A stretch of 64,000 nt of DNA from Candidatus Adlerbacteria bacterium RIFOXYC1_FULL_48_26 (GCA_001773575.1 MEXB01000008.1:2141-66140); one strand, 5' to 3'; counted from the first letter of the stretch, positions 657 through 61,880 are shown. The notes: generated by a model from the sequence alone, not told the origin. Made by a program: numbers and translations.

Positions 657-815
657 ATGTCTCAAGATAGATTGATCAAATTAGCCTGCAACAAGTGCAA
701 GCGCATAAACTACTGGTCCTCCAAGAATAAAAAGCTGGTGGAGCGTAAAATTGAACTCAAAAAGTACTGCAAATGGTGCCGTGCTCAAACAGTTCACAAA
801 GAGGTCAAGAAATAA
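657..815 (+). CDS. rpmG: 50S ribosomal protein L33 (52 aa, below the ORF-track cutoff)
   Basis: Manual translation gives MSQDRLIKLACNKCKRINYWSSKNKKLVERKIELKKYCKWCRAQTVHKEVKK. This has the L33 zinc-ribbon CxxC...CxxC pattern and the conserved NY..TKNK/LELKKYC segment. Confidence 0.85.
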   Translation: MSQDRLIKLACNKCKRINYWSSKNKKLVERKIELKKYCKWCRAQTVHKEVKK

Positions 816-950: not shown

Positions 951-984
951 AAAAGGCCGCGACTTTTATGGTCGCGGCCTTGTT
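951..984 (-). terminator. 11-bp hairpin (aaggccgcgac/gtcgcggcctt) with a T-tract on the minus strand; terminator of the minus-strand gene 988-1623
   Basis: Perfect 11-bp stem. On the minus strand it is followed by TTTTCCTTT. Confidence 0.5.
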
Positions 985-987
985 CGG

Positions 988-1623
988 TCAAGGGAACTGA
1001 CCGGTATGTGCGACCTTCTTGTGGAAGATGCAGGATGCGCTGCAGTAGTCCATGACCAACCGCTCCGCATCGGCCGCGAGGGTCGACAGGAAGGAACGGC
1101 GCTGGACACCTGTCAGTTCGTTGTCCCGCACCTTGTTGAGATGGTGCAGGGTGTCGGGGAACTGGGCCGGGCTCACCAGCACGATACGTCCGCCCTTGGC
1201 AGCGGCGCGGAGCATGGTGGGGCCGCCGATGTCGGTCATCTTGATCACCGAGTCGAAGGTTGCGCCCTCCTTGCTGATTTCCTGCTGGAGGGGATACAGG
1301 TCGACGTAGACCAGGTTGATCGGGTTGATCTTGAGCCGTTCGAGTTCCTCGACCTCCTCAGGGTTGGTGAGGTCGGCGAGAATCGCCGCGTGGACTTCGC
1401 GCGACAAGGTGACAACCTTGTGTCCGAGGATGGGCGGCCCGACCATGGTCGCGACATCCGTCACTTGAATCTCCTCGACCTCTCTGAGGAACAGCGCCGT
1501 GCCACCGGAGGCCACGATATTCCATCCTTGGAAGTAGAGGGTCTTGGCGAATTCCTTCAGCTCCGGGGGTTTCGCGTACGACGAGAACAGGGCAGTCCTG
1601 GTTGCTGTGTCAGAAAGGTTCAA
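988..1623 (-). CDS. Stand-alone IMP cyclohydrolase-like protein (PurH N-terminal MGS-like domain only, no AICAR transformylase domain)
   Basis: The 211-aa product aligns by eye to the first ~200 aa of bifunctional PurH (..ALFSSYAKPP / NIVASGGTA..L.. / TLHPKV-like GHKV / VYVDLYP / DIGGPTMLRAAAKG). The gene is visibly GC-rich relative to its flanks. Confidence 0.55.
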   Translation of the reverse strand: MNLSDTATRTALFSSYAKPPELKEFAKTLYFQGWNIVASGGTALFLREVEEIQVTDVATMVGPPILGHKVVTLSREVHAAILADLTNPEEVEELERLKINPINLVYVDLYPLQQEISKEGATFDSVIKMTDIGGPTMLRAAAKGGRIVLVSPAQFPDTLHHLNKVRDNELTGVQRRSFLSTLAADAERLVMDYCSASCIFHKKVAHTGQFP

Positions 1624-1725
1624 AAGGGCCTCCTATAAGGGAACATTCCCAGAAGCGATACTAGATGATATGCACAAAAAAGCCAATATTATCGTTTTCT
1701 TATCATGGTGCGGTAAACTGTTGTG

Positions 1726-3102
1726 ATGACTCAGGACGAGGCGTTTCAAGTACTTAAAACAGGCGCCAATGTATTTCTGACGGGAGAGCCCGGCAGTGGT
1801 AAAACGCACACGGTAAACCGTTACGTTGCGTACTTACGCGAGCAGGGCATAGAGCCTGCCGTGTGCGCATCTACAGGCATTGCGGCAACGCACATTGGTG
1901 GATACACCATACACTCGTGGTGTGGCATTGGAGTTAAGTCGACGCTCACAGAATATGATCTCGATCTTATCGGACAGAAAGAAAAAGTAGTAAAGCGTGT
2001 GCGCAACGCAAAAGTTCTTATCATTGATGAGATATCTATGCTCTCAGCGCAGACGCTCGACTCTGTCGATGTTGTACTTCGCATGCTCAGAAATTCTGAC
2101 GAAGCCTTCGGTGGCTTACAGATGATTTTTGTCGGCGACTTCTTCCAGCTGCCACCTGTCGTAAAAATGCAGGAGGTAAAAAGCGATATGTTGGAAATTA
2201 ACTACGATGAGTCGCCAAATGGGCAACGCAGCTCAATGTCACCGTTTGCTTTTTATGCGCAGTCTTGGAAGCGTGCCAAGCCACTTGTGTGTTACTTGGA
2301 AGAACAGCATCGCCAAGAGGACACTAAATTTTTGGAAATTCTCTCAGGTCTCAGAAGGGGGTATCTTTCAGATTCTTTAAAGCAAACACTAAAATTGAGA
2401 ATCACTGAGCCGCCAAAGAAAAATACTCATACAAAACTTTTTCCTCATAATGCCAACGTAGATAGGCTCAATGATGCAGAGCTTGAAAAACTGCCCACAT
2501 TGCCGCGCCGTTATGATATGCGAAGCAAAGGTTCTATGCCGCTTGTCGAGGCGCTTAAACGCAGTTGCCTTTCGCCAGATGGGTTGATGCTCAAAGTTGG
2601 CGCCAAAGTTATGTTTACAAAAAACGACCCAGAGGGGGAATACTACAACGGAACACTCGGAACAGTTCTTGAATTTTCAAAATTAACAGGCCATCCAATT
2701 GTGAAATTAAATTCTGGCGGAGTGCTAGAAGTAGATACGGTTGAGTGGGCAGTGCAGGATGGTAATAAAAAACTAGCCAGCATAGAACAGCTACCACTTC
2801 GTTTAGCGTGGGCTATCACCGTGCACAAGAGCCAGGGTATGTCTCTGGACGCTGCAATTATCGACCTTTCAAACGCGTTTGAATATGGTCAAGGATACGT
2901 TGCCTTGTCGCGTGTACGCACGCTAGACGGGCTGTATTTGCTCGGGTTGAACGAGAGAGCGCTCGAGGTGCACCCAGAGGTTATGGAGCAAGATTCAATA
3001 TTCCGTGAACTCTCGGACTCTACCGCTGAAGCCTTCGGCGCAATGCCAGATACAGAACTAGCACAGATGCACGAACAATTTGTTCGTGCGGCTTTAGTGT
3101 AG
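1726..3102 (+). CDS. PIF1/RecD-like ATP-dependent DNA helicase (AAA_30 family)
   Basis: Walker A GEPGSGKT. Walker B / motif II LIIDEISM. Motifs FVGDFFQLPPV and a C-terminal ITVHKSQGMS..AL(S)RVR typical of the PIF1/RecD family. Confidence 0.75.
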   Translation: MTQDEAFQVLKTGANVFLTGEPGSGKTHTVNRYVAYLREQGIEPAVCASTGIAATHIGGYTIHSWCGIGVKSTLTEYDLDLIGQKEKVVKRVRNAKVLIIDEISMLSAQTLDSVDVVLRMLRNSDEAFGGLQMIFVGDFFQLPPVVKMQEVKSDMLEINYDESPNGQRSSMSPFAFYAQSWKRAKPLVCYLEEQHRQEDTKFLEILSGLRRGYLSDSLKQTLKLRITEPPKKNTHTKLFPHNANVDRLNDAELEKLPTLPRRYDMRSKGSMPLVEALKRSCLSPDGLMLKVGAKVMFTKNDPEGEYYNGTLGTVLEFSKLTGHPIVKLNSGGVLEVDTVEWAVQDGNKKLASIEQLPLRLAWAITVHKSQGMSLDAAIIDLSNAFEYGQGYVALSRVRTLDGLYLLGLNERALEVHPEVMEQDSIFRELSDSTAEAFGAMPDTELAQMHEQFVRAALV

Positions 3103-4036: not shown

Positions 4037-4750
4037 CTACAAATTACTTACCTCATCCACAATCTGCTTGTAGATTTTTTCAGGGGCACTGTCCGTCATA
4101 ATGCTTCTGCCGACGATGAGGCAGTCGGAGCCAAAGTCGACAGCTTCCTTGGGAGTCGCGGCCCATCGCTGGTCTGAAGGTTGTCCCTGGCTTGGCACGT
4201 AAATGCCAGGCGTCATAAATGGGACGCCCTTCACATACTCCTTCAGTGCGGGAACACCTGGAGCGCTGCATACAATACCCGCACGGATACCGCAGTCGAA
4301 CGCAATGCGTCCAAGATGCAGCTCCATTTCAGCGTGGGTCTTCGTATTACCGTGAATTTCCTGCAGGTCCTTCTCCTGCATGCTGGTTAGCGTAGTGACA
4401 GCAACAACAGCGTCGCCGAACTCCTTGGCCAATTCGGTTAAGGCCTCGCGTCCGCACATGGTGTGTACGGTGGTGAAACGAAAGCCCATCCGCAAATGGT
4501 TCTCGACAGCCTTAAGGACACGGCTGAGAATGTCATGTTCTTTATTGTCGAGCATCACTGTAGCCGATGTGCCTGGGTACATCGACGTGCGAAGGTAGTG
4601 TGCCGTGGCACGAAGGTCCATGCTCGGTAGAGGGTCATGGACTTTAAAGTGCGTGCACCGCTCTTTCTTAAGGCGATGGATCAGGTCGTACGGGGCCTGG
4701 GCCCAGCGGCGGTTCAGGTCGAGCGAAACCATGACGTCAGGACGTTTCAT
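4037..4750 (-). CDS. pyrF: Orotidine 5'-phosphate decarboxylase
   Basis: Catalytic D-x-K-x-x-D present as MLDNKEHD, the upstream Lys as FKVHDP, plus VTTLTSM and C-terminal LIVGRSI, matching the PyrF pattern. GC-rich relative to flanks. Confidence 0.7.
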   Translation of the reverse strand: MKRPDVMVSLDLNRRWAQAPYDLIHRLKKERCTHFKVHDPLPSMDLRATAHYLRTSMYPGTSATVMLDNKEHDILSRVLKAVENHLRMGFRFTTVHTMCGREALTELAKEFGDAVVAVTTLTSMQEKDLQEIHGNTKTHAEMELHLGRIAFDCGIRAGIVCSAPGVPALKEYVKGVPFMTPGIYVPSQGQPSDQRWAATPKEAVDFGSDCLIVGRSIMTDSAPEKIYKQIVDEVSNL

Positions 4751-22044: not shown

Positions 22045-22428
22045 TTACCGTATGGGTGAACCTGCCTGCCGCAGAACAGCTTCGTCGAGCGCCATCTTCA
22101 GCTGCAGTCTTCCCCAGGGCTTCAAAAGAAACAGGGCATTCAGTTTAAGCGTTTCTGCCTCGATGGCGCTGCCTGACTGGATGATGACAGGGATGTCCTG
22201 GATTTCTTTGTAGAAAGGATCCGTGCGGATCTTCCTTGCCACGTCCAGACCGCGCATGTCGGACCCGGTGTCGTTGTCGGTCAAAATCAGGTCGAAGGTG
22301 TTGCGACCCAATTCCACCAAAAGATCCTCTGCTTTGTCGACCGCCACCACTGTGTGGCCAAACTTGCCAAGCAGCGTAATCACTGCCTCGCGAATCTCCT
22401 GCTCGTCCTCTGCAAATAGCACGCGCAC
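22045..22428 (-). CDS. Orphan response-regulator receiver (CheY-like) domain protein
   Basis: Acidic pocket (EDE.., LILTD phospho-acceptor Asp), VIIQSG, and the conserved Lys in LLKP. No output domain and no kinase nearby. GC-rich. Confidence 0.65.
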   Translation of the reverse strand: MRVLFAEDEQEIREAVITLLGKFGHTVVAVDKAEDLLVELGRNTFDLILTDNDTGSDMRGLDVARKIRTDPFYKEIQDIPVIIQSGSAIEAETLKLNALFLLKPWGRLQLKMALDEAVLRQAGSPIR

Positions 22429-31816: not shown

Positions 31817-32410
31817 ATGGCACGAATGCATCGCATCGATCTCGGAGGATATATCTATCACGTAATTAACCGAGCAAACGCTCGGATACGTATATTTCAT
31901 AACGATTCGGATTACAAAGAATTCGAATATCTACTTACAGAAATTAAAGAAACGTATAACGTACGTATTCTTGCGTATGCATTGATGCCAAATCACTGGC
32001 ATCTTTTACTGTATCCACGGAATGATGGCGATATGTCTAAAGCTCTTCATTGGTTAACTACGTCTCATGCGCGTCGGCATCATATTAAAAACAAAACAAT
32101 TGGAAACGGCCATCTTTACCAAGGACGTTACAAGTCGTTCATTATCAAGGGAGACAAGCATCTTTTAACAGTGCTCAAATATATCGAGAGAAATCCAGCA
32201 CGAGCAAGATTGTGTAATGTTGCAGAGGCGTGGCGATGGGGAAGCGCGTTTAGAAGGGTGTGTGGAACAACTGCAGAGCAGCAGTTGCTTGCAGGATTGC
32301 CCCTTGATCTACCGAAAAATTACCTTGAATGGATTAATACCCCCGAACCTTCCGAAGAATTGAAAGCCATTCGTCATTCTGTAAATATGGGCGTACCATA
32401 TGGTGGGTGA
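31817..32410 (+). CDS. REP-associated tyrosine transposase (RAYT; IS200/IS605-like Y1 HUH transposase)
   Basis: HUH motif in PNHWHLLL, catalytic Tyr region GHLYQGRYKS, N-terminal YHVINR. 197 aa, which fits Y1 transposases. Confidence 0.75.
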   Translation: MARMHRIDLGGYIYHVINRANARIRIFHNDSDYKEFEYLLTEIKETYNVRILAYALMPNHWHLLLYPRNDGDMSKALHWLTTSHARRHHIKNKTIGNGHLYQGRYKSFIIKGDKHLLTVLKYIERNPARARLCNVAEAWRWGSAFRRVCGTTAEQQLLAGLPLDLPKNYLEWINTPEPSEELKAIRHSVNMGVPYGG

Positions 32411-32514: not shown

Positions 32515-32988
32515 TTGTATATGAAAAATAGATTTTATTTTGATCGTTCTCTCACAAATGGAGCTATTATAATTTTAGCCATTGCTTTTACTGCAATGGC
32601 GGGACTCTCTCTTCTTGGAGGTTTTTCAGAACGACCATTCGTGTTTCTGGGAGTTGTTTATTCTATTCTCATTCTCATTTGGTTTGGATTTGCTTACGGG
32701 ATATATATAAATATTGAAGGAAACAGTCTTCAGGTCACACGTTTTTTTATAAAATGCAAGAAAGTTGATTTAGCGAAAGCAATTTCAATACAGCAAAAGC
32801 CAAAATTCGGAGGTTTAATTTATGAAGTCTCCCTGCAATTCCAAGACAATAATGGAAAAATTGATAGTACTGGTCTAATAAACAAACCCGCTCTAAAAGT
32901 AGAGGAATACGAACGACTCGTTAAACTTGTCATTGAAATAAATAAAGATGTAAGTATTGATCCTGATTTACTTAAGAAAGTTTTTTAA
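32515..32988 (+). CDS. Hypothetical membrane protein, possibly YdbS-like bacterial PH-domain (bPH_2) protein; markedly AT-rich
   Basis: Two N-terminal TM helices followed by a beta-rich ~90-aa domain. Lies between inverted REP copies R2 and R3. Confidence 0.35.
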   Translation: MYMKNRFYFDRSLTNGAIIILAIAFTAMAGLSLLGGFSERPFVFLGVVYSILILIWFGFAYGIYINIEGNSLQVTRFFIKCKKVDLAKAISIQQKPKFGGLIYEVSLQFQDNNGKIDSTGLINKPALKVEEYERLVKLVIEINKDVSIDPDLLKKVF

Positions 32989-42139: not shown

Positions 42140-43353
42140 TGCGACCGGTACACCTCACTATTGAAGCGAAGCACTCGTCCGCAAGGGCGGGTGTTTTGCA
42201 TACACCCCATGGTGATATTTTGACGCCTGCCTTTGTCCCGGTTGCTACCAAGGCAGACATAAAGGGAATAGAGTCAGCAAAATTCCCCGCACTCGGCGTT
42301 CAAACACTTATTGCAAATACGTACCATCTGTATCTTTCAGGACTAGAAGCGGTAGAGAAAGGTGGCGGCGTTGCCAAGTTTATGAATTGGAATGGTCCCA
42401 CGATGACGGACTCTGGCGGCTTCCAAGTCTTCTCATTAGGTAGCGGGTTCGGCAAAAAAGTTTCAAAATTTTCTGGCGAAGTTTCCCCTGAAGAAGCAGT
42501 TAGTGTTTTTGATGAGGATTTAGCGACTGCTCACGGTAAATTAGCCATCATAGATGACGAAGGGGTTTCGTTTACGTCGCACCTCGACGGCTCGCTCCAT
42601 CGTTTTACTCCAGAGCGCTCAGTGGAAATTCAACACCGCCTTGGTGCAGATATTTTCTTTGCGTTTGACCAGTGCACTGCGCCAACAGACACGTACGAAT
42701 TTCAAAAAGATGCGATGGAGAGAACTCACGCATGGGCAAAGCGTTCTTTGAGTGCACACCGACAAAACTTTGATGCCAACACAAAGCAGGGTATTTACGG
42801 TATAGGGCAGGGCGGGCAATTTGATGACCTTCGCCGCGAAAGCGCACGCACTATTGGCGACATGGGCTTTGATGGCTTCGGCCTTGGTGGTTCATTCAGT
42901 CGCAAATACGGCGACCATTCTCTGCAGTCCGCACTTGCGATGCTTACAGAGCTGCCAGAGGGTATGCCAGTGCATGGTTTGGGAGTAGGAGAGCCTGAAG
43001 ATATTTTGCTTGGCGCTGAACACGGCGTTGATACGTTTGACTGCGTTACTCCAACTCGTAATGGCCGTAATGGTGGTTTGTATACAAAGAAAGGAAAGAT
43101 TCAAATTCCGAATGCTGAGCATCAATATGATTACTCTCCAATAGATGAGGGTTGTGAATGCCCAACGTGCCAAAACCATACTCGTGCATATGTGCACCAT
43201 CTCTTCCGCACTCGTGAAATTCTTGGACCCATTCTCGCTAGCATGCACAATGTCTATTTCCTCACGAAACTTTGTAGTGATATCCGTGAATCAATTTTGA
43301 ACGGTCAATTTGAGCAATTTAAGGAGGGCTTTTTAAATAAGTATCAAGGTTAA
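42139..43353 (+). CDS. tgt: Queuine tRNA-ribosyltransferase (tRNA-guanine transglycosylase)
   Basis: TPAF.PV.T, DSGGFQ, catalytic Asp region, C-terminal zinc site CECPTC..H.RAY..HL. Confidence 0.9.
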   Translation: MRPVHLTIEAKHSSARAGVLHTPHGDILTPAFVPVATKADIKGIESAKFPALGVQTLIANTYHLYLSGLEAVEKGGGVAKFMNWNGPTMTDSGGFQVFSLGSGFGKKVSKFSGEVSPEEAVSVFDEDLATAHGKLAIIDDEGVSFTSHLDGSLHRFTPERSVEIQHRLGADIFFAFDQCTAPTDTYEFQKDAMERTHAWAKRSLSAHRQNFDANTKQGIYGIGQGGQFDDLRRESARTIGDMGFDGFGLGGSFSRKYGDHSLQSALAMLTELPEGMPVHGLGVGEPEDILLGAEHGVDTFDCVTPTRNGRNGGLYTKKGKIQIPNAEHQYDYSPIDEGCECPTCQNHTRAYVHHLFRTREILGPILASMHNVYFLTKLCSDIRESILNGQFEQFKEGFLNKYQG

Positions 43354-51810: not shown

Positions 51811-51883
51811 GGGCCCTTAGCTCATTTGGTAGAGCGCCTCATTTGCAATGAGGAGGTGACCGGTTCGATCCCGGTAGGGTCCA
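51811..51883 (+). tRNA. tRNA-Ala (anticodon TGC) with the G3:U70 identity pair; CCA not encoded
   Basis: Acceptor gggccct/agggtcc (G3:U70 wobble), anticodon loop uuTGCaa, T-loop ggttcgatc. Confidence 0.9.
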
Positions 51884-51890
51884 CAAACAC

Positions 51891-51925
51891 TTGACAAAAG
51901 AACTATATATGTGTATAGTTCTTTT
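51891..51925 (+). promoter_or_regulatory. Consensus promoter (-35 TTGACA 51891-51896; 17-nt spacer; -10 TATAGT 51914-51919) overlapping a perfect 12-bp inverted repeat (aaaagaactata-N6-tatagttctttt, 51896-51925)
   Basis: Hexamers, spacer length and the palindrome read directly. The right palindrome arm contains the -10 element. Starts 8 nt after the tRNA-Ala 3' end. Confidence 0.5.
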
Positions 51926-51956
51926 GTGTTTTAGGATAGTTCCCAAGGAGGCAGTA

Positions 51957-52220
51957 ATGCAGACGAGTCAGCAAGTTATCGAGCAAGCCCTTCGCAATGC
52001 GGAGACTGCGGAACCGGGCATTCAGCCCGCGATTCTGATGAACCTGAACATCGACCACACCAAGGTCGCCGAGTACCAGCGCACGTATCTGAACGATGCC
52101 TGGGCGCCGAAGACCAAGGAGCTGATGGACAGCGGCTTCATCATCTTCCGCATCCAGACCGAGCTCGGCCTCAACGGCCACATCACCTACATCTACATGG
52201 CGAAGATGAAGGCCAACTAA
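51957..52220 (+). CDS. Hypothetical protein (87 aa), GC-rich
   Basis: AGGAGG RBS 6 nt upstream of ATG. Driven by the promoter/operator above and followed by a strong terminator. The ORF-track N-terminal extension overlaps the promoter and was rejected. Confidence 0.5.
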   Translation: MQTSQQVIEQALRNAETAEPGIQPAILMNLNIDHTKVAEYQRTYLNDAWAPKTKELMDSGFIIFRIQTELGLNGHITYIYMAKMKAN

Positions 52221-60423: not shown

Positions 60424-61038
60424 ATGTATTTCTTCAAAGACTCGCCAAAAAAGAAGATAGTTATCTTGCTCGGCCATCCCGACACGTCACAAACGCTGTG
60501 TGGCGAACTCGCGTTGTTATACGAGAGCGCTGCAAAGAAAGCTGGTCACGAAGTGCGACGCTTTAGCATTGGTGATATGAACTTTGATCCAATTTTGCAC
60601 AAAGGATATAAAGCTATTCAACAACTTGAGCCGGATCTTATAAAATTTCAAGACGCTGTTCGTTGGAGTAACCACTTTGTCGTTATCTATCCTAACTGGT
60701 GGTGCACCATGCCAGCCTTACTCAAAGGGTTGTTCGACCGTGTCTGGATGCCAGGTTTTTGTTTTCATATGATTAAGAATGCAGAAGGGAAACAAACAAT
60801 GGGTTGGCATAAATTACTGAAGGGCAGGACAGCTCGAGTGATTGTTACCTCCGGCACCCACCCAGTTCTTATCTATTTATTTTTCGGTGACTATACAAAC
60901 GAGATAAAGAGAGGGATTTTATGGTTTGCTGGGTTTAAAACCAAGCTCACTAAGTTCGGCCCTGCAGAGCATGCGCCAGAATGGAAGCTTAATGAGTGGC
61001 GACGTAAGGTCGTGCGGCTAGGGAAGTTGGGGGAATAG
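60424..61038 (+). CDS. Flavodoxin-like fold NAD(P)H-dependent oxidoreductase (Flavodoxin_2 / NQO-like, cf. KefF/MdaB family)
   Basis: KIVILLGHP....T, ..YPNWW..MPALLKG.FDRV. pattern typical of the family. Confidence 0.65.
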   Translation: MYFFKDSPKKKIVILLGHPDTSQTLCGELALLYESAAKKAGHEVRRFSIGDMNFDPILHKGYKAIQQLEPDLIKFQDAVRWSNHFVVIYPNWWCTMPALLKGLFDRVWMPGFCFHMIKNAEGKQTMGWHKLLKGRTARVIVTSGTHPVLIYLFFGDYTNEIKRGILWFAGFKTKLTKFGPAEHAPEWKLNEWRRKVVRLGKLGE

Positions 61039-61145
61039 CCACTCGACAAATCTCTTTTTCGTGTAATACTTGCCCTCGTTGTGCTCTTTCACATGTGCGC
61101 AGCGTCTGTTAACTTTTCAAAACTATTTCCCCTGAGGAGATGCTC

Positions 61146-61880
61146 ATGATTAGGGTATTAGGCGTAGCTGCCTTTGTTCTGCTGTTCTTGGCAGGATGTG
61201 TCAGCGATGGTGGTGGTCCTGTAACAAGCTCCGCCTACGGACCAGCCGTCGTGGAATCCTGCGGTGGCGATGATGAATGCGCTGTGATGGTCGCCGACCG
61301 TCCCAACGAGGTGCTCTACTTCGCGCCCGGTGCGTCGTGGGCCGCCGGCCCGCTCTACACCGTTCCGTGGGAGCCAACCTACATGCTTCCGTACCGCGTC
61401 CGCTACTACAATGGCTGGGGCGGTACTGTCGTGACCAACACGGTCTGGCGCGATGTCGCCGTTCGTCGGGGCTGGAATCGCTCCGTCGTCGTCGCGCATA
61501 ATGCTCCGAGGGGTGTCATGCCGTTCCGCGGCAACCCCTCGATACGTTTGTCGGACGGTCGTTCGATCGCCTACAACAATCGTCACAGCGCCGTCCACCA
61601 GGTTCGTTTGAACCAGGGTCGCAATTTCACGCCGCGTCCTCCGGTTCACGCTGGTGTGACGCCGCGGCACACAGCTCCGCCGCAGCACACGCGGCCGCCG
61701 CAGCATACGACCCCGTCTCGGCCGCCGACGCGTACGACGGCTCCGCCTTCGCGGCCTCCGCCGCGTGCAACGCCTCCACAACGTCCGCCGCAGCACGTCA
61801 CCACGCCACGTCCTGCTCCTCGGCCGGCCCCGCCGCCTCAGCGTCGCAACTGCGGTGGGCACAACCAGCCCAAGTGCTGA
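61146..61880 (+). CDS. Lipoprotein (lipobox LAGC) with Pro/Thr/Arg-rich repetitive C-terminal half; very GC-rich
   Basis: GAGGAG RBS 6 nt upstream of the second ATG. MIRVLGVAAFVLLFLAGC. The Arg-rich antisense ORF 61158-61862 was rejected as a GC artefact. Confidence 0.45.
   Translation: MIRVLGVAAFVLLFLAGCVSDGGGPVTSSAYGPAVVESCGGDDECAVMVADRPNEVLYFAPGASWAAGPLYTVPWEPTYMLPYRVRYYNGWGGTVVTNTVWRDVAVRRGWNRSVVVAHNAPRGVMPFRGNPSIRLSDGRSIAYNNRHSAVHQVRLNQGRNFTPRPPVHAGVTPRHTAPPQHTRPPQHTTPSRPPTRTTAPPSRPPPRATPPQRPPQHVTTPRPAPRPAPPPQRRNCGGHNQPKC

Follow-up and report, generated by a model that had tools for sequence, protein, structure and literature searches.

A stand-alone IMP cyclohydrolase gene of the purJ type in an Adlerbacteria genome and the evidence for its horizontal acquisition

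The short gene beside tRNA-Trp in Candidatus Adlerbacteria bacterium RIFOXYC1_FULL_48_26 raises two questions: what an IMP cyclohydrolase (IMPCH) domain, which is the N-terminal domain of bifunctional PurH, does when it is encoded by itself, and how a gene so much richer in G and C than its surroundings came to lie at this position. A preliminary description of the locus regarded a lone IMPCH domain as unusual and proposed that the gene had been inserted at a tRNA integration hotspot, possibly as a horizontally acquired salvage or nucleotide-modifying function. These proposals are evaluated here for a stretch of 64,000 nucleotides that includes the locus (the window) and for related sequences, which are given L numbers where they must be told apart.

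We designated the gene purJ. Its 211-amino-acid product is encoded on the minus strand (positions 988 to 1623 in the ORF list), with a TTG start codon at 1623. A Shine-Dalgarno sequence, AGGAGG, can be read directly from the sequence 5 nt 5' of the TTG (1629 to 1634, minus strand). A consensus scan also returned a putative sigma-70-like promoter on the same strand, TTTACC-18-GATAAT (1688 to 1717; 9 of 12 matches), which is a pattern match only and lies inside the 99-nt divergent intergenic region common to purJ and the PIF1 helicase gene. Seven nucleotides past the purJ stop codon is an intrinsic-terminator-like hairpin (953 to 981, minus strand) of 11 bp, 8 of them G-C pairs, with a 7-nt loop. 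This hairpin, which corresponds to inverted repeat I7, is 100% complementary, has a folding energy of -22.9 kcal/mol (z = -6.5 relative to shuffled sequences), and faces tRNA-Trp; its 5' part is also kept 3' of the orthologue in L005. The hairpin terminator that had been attributed to the gene is therefore present, and with its own start, stop, and signals purJ encodes the IMPCH domain independently.

The convergent neighbor of purJ is tRNA-Trp (CCA) at 861 to 934 on the plus strand. On the same side is rpmG (657 to 815, plus strand), a 52-amino-acid ORF for ribosomal protein L33 that is 98% identical to the L005 gene carrying PF00471. The divergent neighbor, at 1723 to 3102 on the plus strand, encodes a PIF1-family helicase (Pfam PIF1, E = 3.8e-33). 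These coordinates agree with the earlier placement of the lone gene between tRNA-Trp and PIF1. Further neighbors in the window include miaA and pyrF. The latter gene, encoding OMP decarboxylase (4037 to 4750, minus strand), has a third-position GC content (GC3) of 0.63 compared with a window mean of 0.47, and it shows that the de novo pyrimidine pathway is at least partly represented. A search of Rfam at E <= 1 over positions 500 to 2200 recovered tRNA-Trp only, with no riboswitch (for example, ZTP) upstream of purJ. An antisense ORF of 210 amino acids (1006 to 1638, plus strand) spans purJ; we regarded it as a consequence of the GC-rich third positions. The purJ product is 100% identical to the Adlerbacteria RIFOXYC1_FULL_48_26 hypothetical protein A2419_01635, and the gene is intact, at 211 to 212 amino acids, in six assemblies, including L005 and L006.

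The product corresponds to the N-terminal IMPCH domain of PurH only, as the preliminary description had stated. Its sole Pfam match is MGS (PF02142; E = 1.4e-11; score, 44.8 bits; cut-off, 24.1). Two NCBIfam PurH equivalogs, NF002049 and TIGR00355, were matched with E values of 1.4e-36 and 1.5e-31, but only over the N-terminal third of the models (about 172 to 187 of about 510 positions; 4 to 172 in NF002049), and the scores of 126 and 110 bits are far under the cut-offs of 402 and 528. Among proteins in the PDB, PurH/ATIC entries matched with E values of 9e-26 to 1e-19, and all of the strong matches were to IMPCH domains. An AlphaFold model built with 50 family members (pLDDT 94.4, pTM 0.90) covers the complete IMPCH domain with its C-terminal helix and aligns with the IMPCH domain of human ATIC (1PKX, about 1 to 200) with TM scores of 0.83 to 0.84 and an rmsd of 2.0 to 2.2 Å over 201 columns. 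The AICAR transformylase (AICARFT) half of PurH was found nowhere in the window, again as described previously: the purJ product has no PF01808 and its ORF ends at 211 amino acids, followed by the terminator; none of the window's called genes has a recorded PF01808 match; and the best tblastn match to five Patescibacterial AICARFT domains had an E value of 0.59. The gene encodes a PurH-type IMPCH domain with the IMPCH fold, and this domain is unfused.

In 300-nt windows, GC content is 0.59 to 0.63 over positions 901 to 1650, compared with 0.43 to 0.50 on the PIF1 side and 0.47 to 0.51 on the rpmG/tRNA-Trp side. This result confirms that the gene is strongly GC-rich relative to both flanks, and only the purJ ORF and its terminator have this composition. 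The overall GC content of purJ is 0.605. Its GC3 of 0.811 is the highest in the window, where the mean for 69 ORFs is 0.471 (sd, 0.095), and GC1 and GC2 are ordinary. All codon families are shifted to G/C endings, including codons that are rare in the host (CGG, 0.30 versus 0.04; CCC; GTC), in a pattern unlike that of atpA, atpD, atpE, or rpmG. Translational selection was considered as a cause of the high GC3 and was rejected because of this uniform shift, which the atp genes do not have. The purJ genes of L005 and L006 have GC3 values of 0.79 to 0.80, compared with 0.34 to 0.67, mostly about 0.45, in their flanks. A family-wide elevation of GC3 was also considered and rejected, because the excess reaches +0.32 to +0.35 only in the three-genome clade and +0.17 to +0.22 in a few other members, and is about 0 in most. 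Most of the other stand-alone family members have host-like GC3.

Other genes in the window also stand out in composition. A second compositional island is formed by a 246-amino-acid ORF at 61140 to 61880 (plus strand; GC 0.65; GC1 0.67, GC2 0.61, GC3 0.68), which has no Pfam match on record, has an N terminus resembling a lipoprotein signal (…LLFLAGC), and directly follows an FMN reductase gene (60424 to 61038). An ORF of 109 amino acids with a GC3 of 0.745 (51891 to 52220) is a small GC-rich gene located 7 nt past tRNA-Ala (51811 to 51884), and a response-regulator gene (22045 to 22428, minus strand) has a GC3 of 0.68 against the window mean of 0.47. A very AT-rich ORF of 157 amino acids (32515 to 32988; GC 0.325, GC3 0.23) follows an IS200/IS605-type Y1 transposase gene (31817 to 32410; PF01797).

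The same locus is found in L005, where the purJ product has 87% amino acid identity to that of the window, and in L006 (66%), with divergent PIF1 on one flank and the tRNA-Trp and rpmG pair on the opposite one. No gene separates purJ from tRNA-Trp in the window, but L005 has a GFA gene at that point and L006 has a gene for FMN reductase. PIF1, which is syntenic in both genomes (89% and 77% amino acid identity, respectively), served as a yardstick of host-background divergence. When the window is compared with L005, purJ has a dS of 0.38, four times lower than the 1.59 of PIF1, and in the comparison with L006 the PIF1 dS is saturated whereas that of purJ is 0.87 to 1.06. Values of dS so far under those of the flank imply that the gene is younger than the split of its hosts. 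Similarity to L005 is also uneven along purJ. The 3' 145 codons have a dS of 0.21 and the 5' 65 codons a dS of 1.01; nucleotide identity is about 0.94 over 1005 to 1424 and 0.58 to 0.65 over 1425 to 1541, compared with about 0.8 in PIF1; and residues 27 to 64 of the product are strongly unlike those of the nearest relatives. This unevenness makes the gene a mosaic.

Synonymous changes on the two close branches, polarized with L006 as the outgroup, comprise 10 from GC to AT and 2 from AT to GC, a count of only 12 polarized sites. The ratio expected under host mutation pressure on a gene with a GC3 of 0.8 is about 5:1, and at equilibrium it is 1:1. The dN/dS of purJ is 0.19 to 0.30, which shows that the gene is functional and is kept by selection, although under a weaker constraint than PIF1, whose dN/dS is four to five times lower (0.047). 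Horizontal acquisition, one of the earlier proposals, is well supported by the codon usage of purJ, the discordance in dS, the mosaic pattern of similarity, and the GC-to-AT direction of the recent synonymous changes. The results indicate import from a GC-richer donor within the Patescibacterial purJ clade, which is where we infer the donor to belong, with later exchange among related Adlerbacteria and ongoing amelioration. The proposal of an insertion at a tRNA-Trp integration hotspot fared less well. There is no integrase among the neighbors of purJ, no tRNA-derived direct repeat was found over positions 600 to 1900, and the gene is at the same locus in three diverged genomes. Thus, the locus does not have the features of a tRNA-targeted integrative island.

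A different position for purJ was observed in L087, a 506-kb contig that has an order of genes in common with positions 43000 to 64000 of the window (UvrB-UvrA-UvrC-Ddl … FMN reductase … YchF-DUF5671-LeuRS). In L087 purJ lies between Ddl and the FMN reductase gene; the window has the ATP synthase operon there, and its purJ is about 50 kb away. This difference fits either loss and re-acquisition of the gene or its relocation.

Contrary to the preliminary description, a lone IMPCH domain is not unusual. Unfused IMPCH genes were described as purJ by Cruz et al. (2019), in 50 bacterial genomes from 10 phyla, where purV/purJ replaces purH and purJ is usually paired with purV, which encodes AICARFT only (PMC6486802). 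Hunter et al. (2019) described the unfused form as PurH2 and showed that the enzyme of Archaeoglobus turns FAICAR into IMP and can complement E. coli; A. fulgidus PurH2 is the only unfused form for which this activity is shown (PMC6797443). A genome with an unfused IMPCH would be expected to encode a separate source of FAICAR, purV in bacteria or purP in archaea. A text search of the 2019 purJ survey did not find Patescibacteria (PMC6486802), and literature searches for IMP cyclohydrolase with Patescibacteria or candidate phyla radiation, and for Adlerbacteria with purine, returned nothing relevant. In the sequence data the gene type is abundant in Patescibacteria. A protein search with the purJ product yielded 404 relatives; among the best 120 of these, nearly all are 187 to 231 amino acids long with PF02142 only, and those that are named are Patescibacteria. 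In a neighbor-joining tree the window protein falls within a clade of about 119 sequences, essentially all of them stand-alone, and the sister group consists of Patescibacterial full-length PurH mixed with stand-alone forms.

Several of the relatives are found among other genes for purine synthesis. The genes purB, purC, purM, and purE are 3 to 7 kb from the stand-alone gene in both a Nomurabacteria contig (L008), which also has purQ, and a Kaiserbacteria contig (L024), which also has a formyltransferase gene. In L089, purM, purC, and purB are within 10 kb, and in L090 purC is about 4 kb away. The stand-alone gene is directly followed by purD-purE in L162 and L163 and by purD in L158. This context of relatives elsewhere supports a canonical role for the gene. 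The formyltransferase gene of L024 (215 to 1105, plus strand; 296 amino acids), about 7 kb from the stand-alone purJ, has a weak match to Formyl_trans_N (E = 1.1e-8), and its product could be PurN or an alternative formyltransferase.

AICARFT-only (purV) proteins of 333 to 356 amino acids are found in the same lineages as the stand-alone IMPCH proteins. Their genes adjoin purL/purM in L174 and purE/purC in L175 and L176. However, no AICARFT was detected with tblastn within ±8 to 10 kb of stand-alone purJ genes, and no purJ was found within ±10 kb of three purV genes. Because the two halves are unlinked, this arrangement is not a simple adjacent split; in many Paceibacteria purH is two unlinked genes.

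Residues known to be important in the IMPCH domain are retained in the purJ product with one conspicuous variation. Y110, D131, and K143, the equivalents of human Tyr104, Asp125, and Lys137, are invariant in family alignments of 33 and 50 sequences, and the phosphate-binding S-x-G-T motif (S39 to T42) is also invariant in the purJ family. In the purJ product the loop GHKVVTLSR replaces the canonical GGRVKTLHP, so that Val71 corresponds to Lys66 and His68 to Gly63. Lys66 is described as a conserved active-site residue that flips on ligand binding (PMC9525906). The form GH[RK]VVTLSR is found throughout the stand-alone family and is absent from solved structures, as all PDB PurH proteins carry GGRVKT. 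The HRVVT loop is not confined to orphan domains, as it is also present (GHRVVTL for GGRVKTL) in full-length PurH, with both IMPCH and PF01808, of Acidimicrobiia (L028 and L031) and Patescibacteria (L007 to L022). Its presence there argues that the loop is compatible with activity. The "conserved" Lys66 is therefore replaced across a whole clade of presumably functional enzymes, and comparison of these sequences argues that the loop is an alternative form and does not signal loss of function.

It is necessary to consider whether purJ might be something other than an imported and functional gene. Its GC richness could be native and held by selection, through expression-linked codon bias, RNA structure, or an antisense gene, with no transfer. 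A GC3 of about 0.8 has been retained in three genomes in which PIF1 is saturated at synonymous sites, and the 210-amino-acid antisense ORF does span the gene. However, long antisense ORFs are to be expected from GC-rich third positions, and the shift of every codon family, rare codons included, differs from the pattern in atpA/D/E and rpmG. Of the recent synonymous changes, 10 are towards A/T and 2 away from it, the purJ dS is far under that of the flank, and host-like GC3 is found in most family members. We consider native GC richness very unlikely. The sharp GC step at the borders of purJ might alternatively suggest that a fragment from a GC-rich organism had been joined to an Adlerbacteria contig during assembly or binning. 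The same gene and neighbors with identical junctions are present in four independent assemblies, one of them a 165.9-kb scaffold to which the other genes of the window map, and this excludes an assembly chimera. The order PIF1-purJ-tRNA-Trp is also found in two diverged genomes, and an artefact of this kind is scarcely credible. Furthermore, as the protein corresponds to no more than the N-terminal third of PurH, and as the gene is unusually far from its nearest relative over its 5' part, purJ could be taken for a decaying, non-functional remnant of a purH gene that was truncated by loss of its AICARFT half. Decay would be difficult to reconcile with a product that retains all of the family-invariant residues and a whole IMPCH domain through the C-terminal helix (pLDDT 94), with a gene that has its own ribosome-binding site, promoter-like site, and terminator and a dN/dS of 0.19 to 0.30, or with membership in a clade of about 119 sequences that are almost entirely stand-alone. 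That purJ is such a remnant is highly improbable.

A more substantial alternative is that the product is an orphan cyclohydrolase with another job, in a cell with no AICAR formyltransferase or de novo pathway. It might then act on host-derived FAICAR or an AICAR derivative, or on some other formamido-carboxamide nucleotide as ForH does in formycin biosynthesis. No pur gene is among the called genes of the 64-kb window or of the adjoining sequence, which extends about 8 kb on the left and about 2.6 kb on the right, so that about 75 kb around purJ is covered. The gene also appears to have arrived alone, as only the ORF and terminator are GC-rich; its active site departs from that of assayed enzymes (Lys66 to Val); its dN/dS is above that of PIF1; and the stand-alone homologue ForH (PDB 6NKO) is an example of this fold recruited to another pathway (PMC7118188). 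However, missing pur neighbors are uninformative, because 34 of 50 bacterial purJ genes (about two thirds) do not adjoin other pur genes (PMC6486802). Searches with purC (a Kaiserbacteria query) and with AICARFT domains gave many matches in Kaiserbacteria and Paceibacterota and none that was named Adlerbacteria, which is not evidence of absence. Moreover, the clade of the closest relatives has members that adjoin purE/M/C/B, the Val/His motif is also present in ordinary full-length PurH, there are no neighbors of a biosynthetic-cluster type, and ForH is a distant match. On balance an orphan role is possible but doubtful. Its more specific form, in which a genome that lacks purV and the upstream pathway maintains under purifying selection an imported purJ with the His68/Val71 loop in place of Gly63/Lys66, is unlikely. 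If this were true, purine rings would be finished from host-cell intermediates, or a different nucleotide substrate would be used, and the gene would represent a one-enzyme metabolic shortcut in an episymbiont. Nothing in the results points to the special salvage or nucleotide-modifying function that was suggested previously.

The explanation that we favor, and consider reasonably probable, is that the gene is a horizontally acquired purJ (PurH2-type) IMP cyclohydrolase gene that is partnered by a separate purV, is under purifying selection, and is drifting to host GC. The purJ product would close the purine ring in the last de novo purine step, converting FAICAR to IMP and water, and would work like the N-terminal domain of bifunctional PurH/ATIC. 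Its substrate, FAICAR, would be supplied by an AICAR formyltransferase that is the product of another gene, purV, as in those other Patescibacteria whose purH is split. Both the activity and the presence of the partner enzyme in the genome we infer. The purJ copy presumably originated in a clade member of higher GC content within the Patescibacterial purJ group to which it belongs; related Adlerbacteria may since have exchanged it at the PIF1/tRNA-Trp locus, and purifying selection maintains it as its composition slowly drifts to the lower GC of the host.

Finding purJ in this genome does not change the understanding of the pathway. Its significance is that the division of purH into purJ and purV is widespread in Patescibacteria, which have often been presumed to have no de novo route to nucleotides, and that annotation pipelines call such proteins "hypothetical" or, wrongly, bifunctional PurH. 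The gene also offers a clean, small case in which bacteria with reduced genomes have exchanged a gene at a locus that is conserved, and GH[RK]VVT is an uncharacterized active-site variant that ordinary full-length PurH of Acidimicrobiia has as well.

Comparison with known systems places the gene. Methylglyoxal synthase and the MGS-like domain of carbamoyl-phosphate synthetase have the MGS-like fold for which PF02142 is named, but their structural matches to the window protein are marginal (E = 4e-3 to 2e-2; TM, 0.34 to 0.44), and the sequence signal is specifically that of PurH. The archaeal-type IMP cyclohydrolase PurO catalyzes the same reaction from a separate gene (PMC6486802, PMC6797443) but belongs to another protein family that is analogous to the PurH IMPCH domain, whereas the window protein is clearly PurH-type. 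ForH, from the formycin cluster of Streptomyces kaniharaensis, is unfused like the purJ product, has a similar length (216 amino acids), and has the same fold (TM, 0.71 to 0.75 by query length and 0.77 to 0.82 by ForH length). However, the two proteins are only 28 to 30% identical, and the ForH match (E = 6e-10) is weaker than that of every PurH except Thermotoga maritima 1ZCZ. ForH is encoded in a C-nucleoside biosynthetic cluster (PMC7118188), and the neighbors of purJ in the window (rpmG, tRNA-Trp, PIF1, miaA, and pyrF) include no cluster of the formycin type.

The IMPCH domains of PurH/ATIC are closer. Those of human (1PKX), M. tuberculosis (3ZZM), and avian (1G8M) proteins are like the purJ product in fold over the whole protein (TM, 0.80 to 0.84), have 33 to 37% identity to it, and have the equivalents of Tyr104, Asp125, and Lys137 and the S-x-G-T motif in common with it. 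The window protein differs in having no AICARFT domain, in scoring under the equivalog cut-offs, and in carrying Val for Lys66 and His for Gly63. PurJ/PurH2, represented by A. fulgidus AF1811 and bacterial purJ, is a single IMPCH (MGS-like) domain of about 200 amino acids that has its own gene, is homologous to the PurH N terminus, often does not adjoin pur genes, and in bacteria is paired with a separate purV (PMC6486802, PMC6797443). The window copy differs from these in being Patescibacterial, in having GH[RK]VVT instead of GGRVKT, and in being compositionally foreign. The gene is a purJ/PurH2-type stand-alone IMP cyclohydrolase gene and so belongs to a gene type that is already known.
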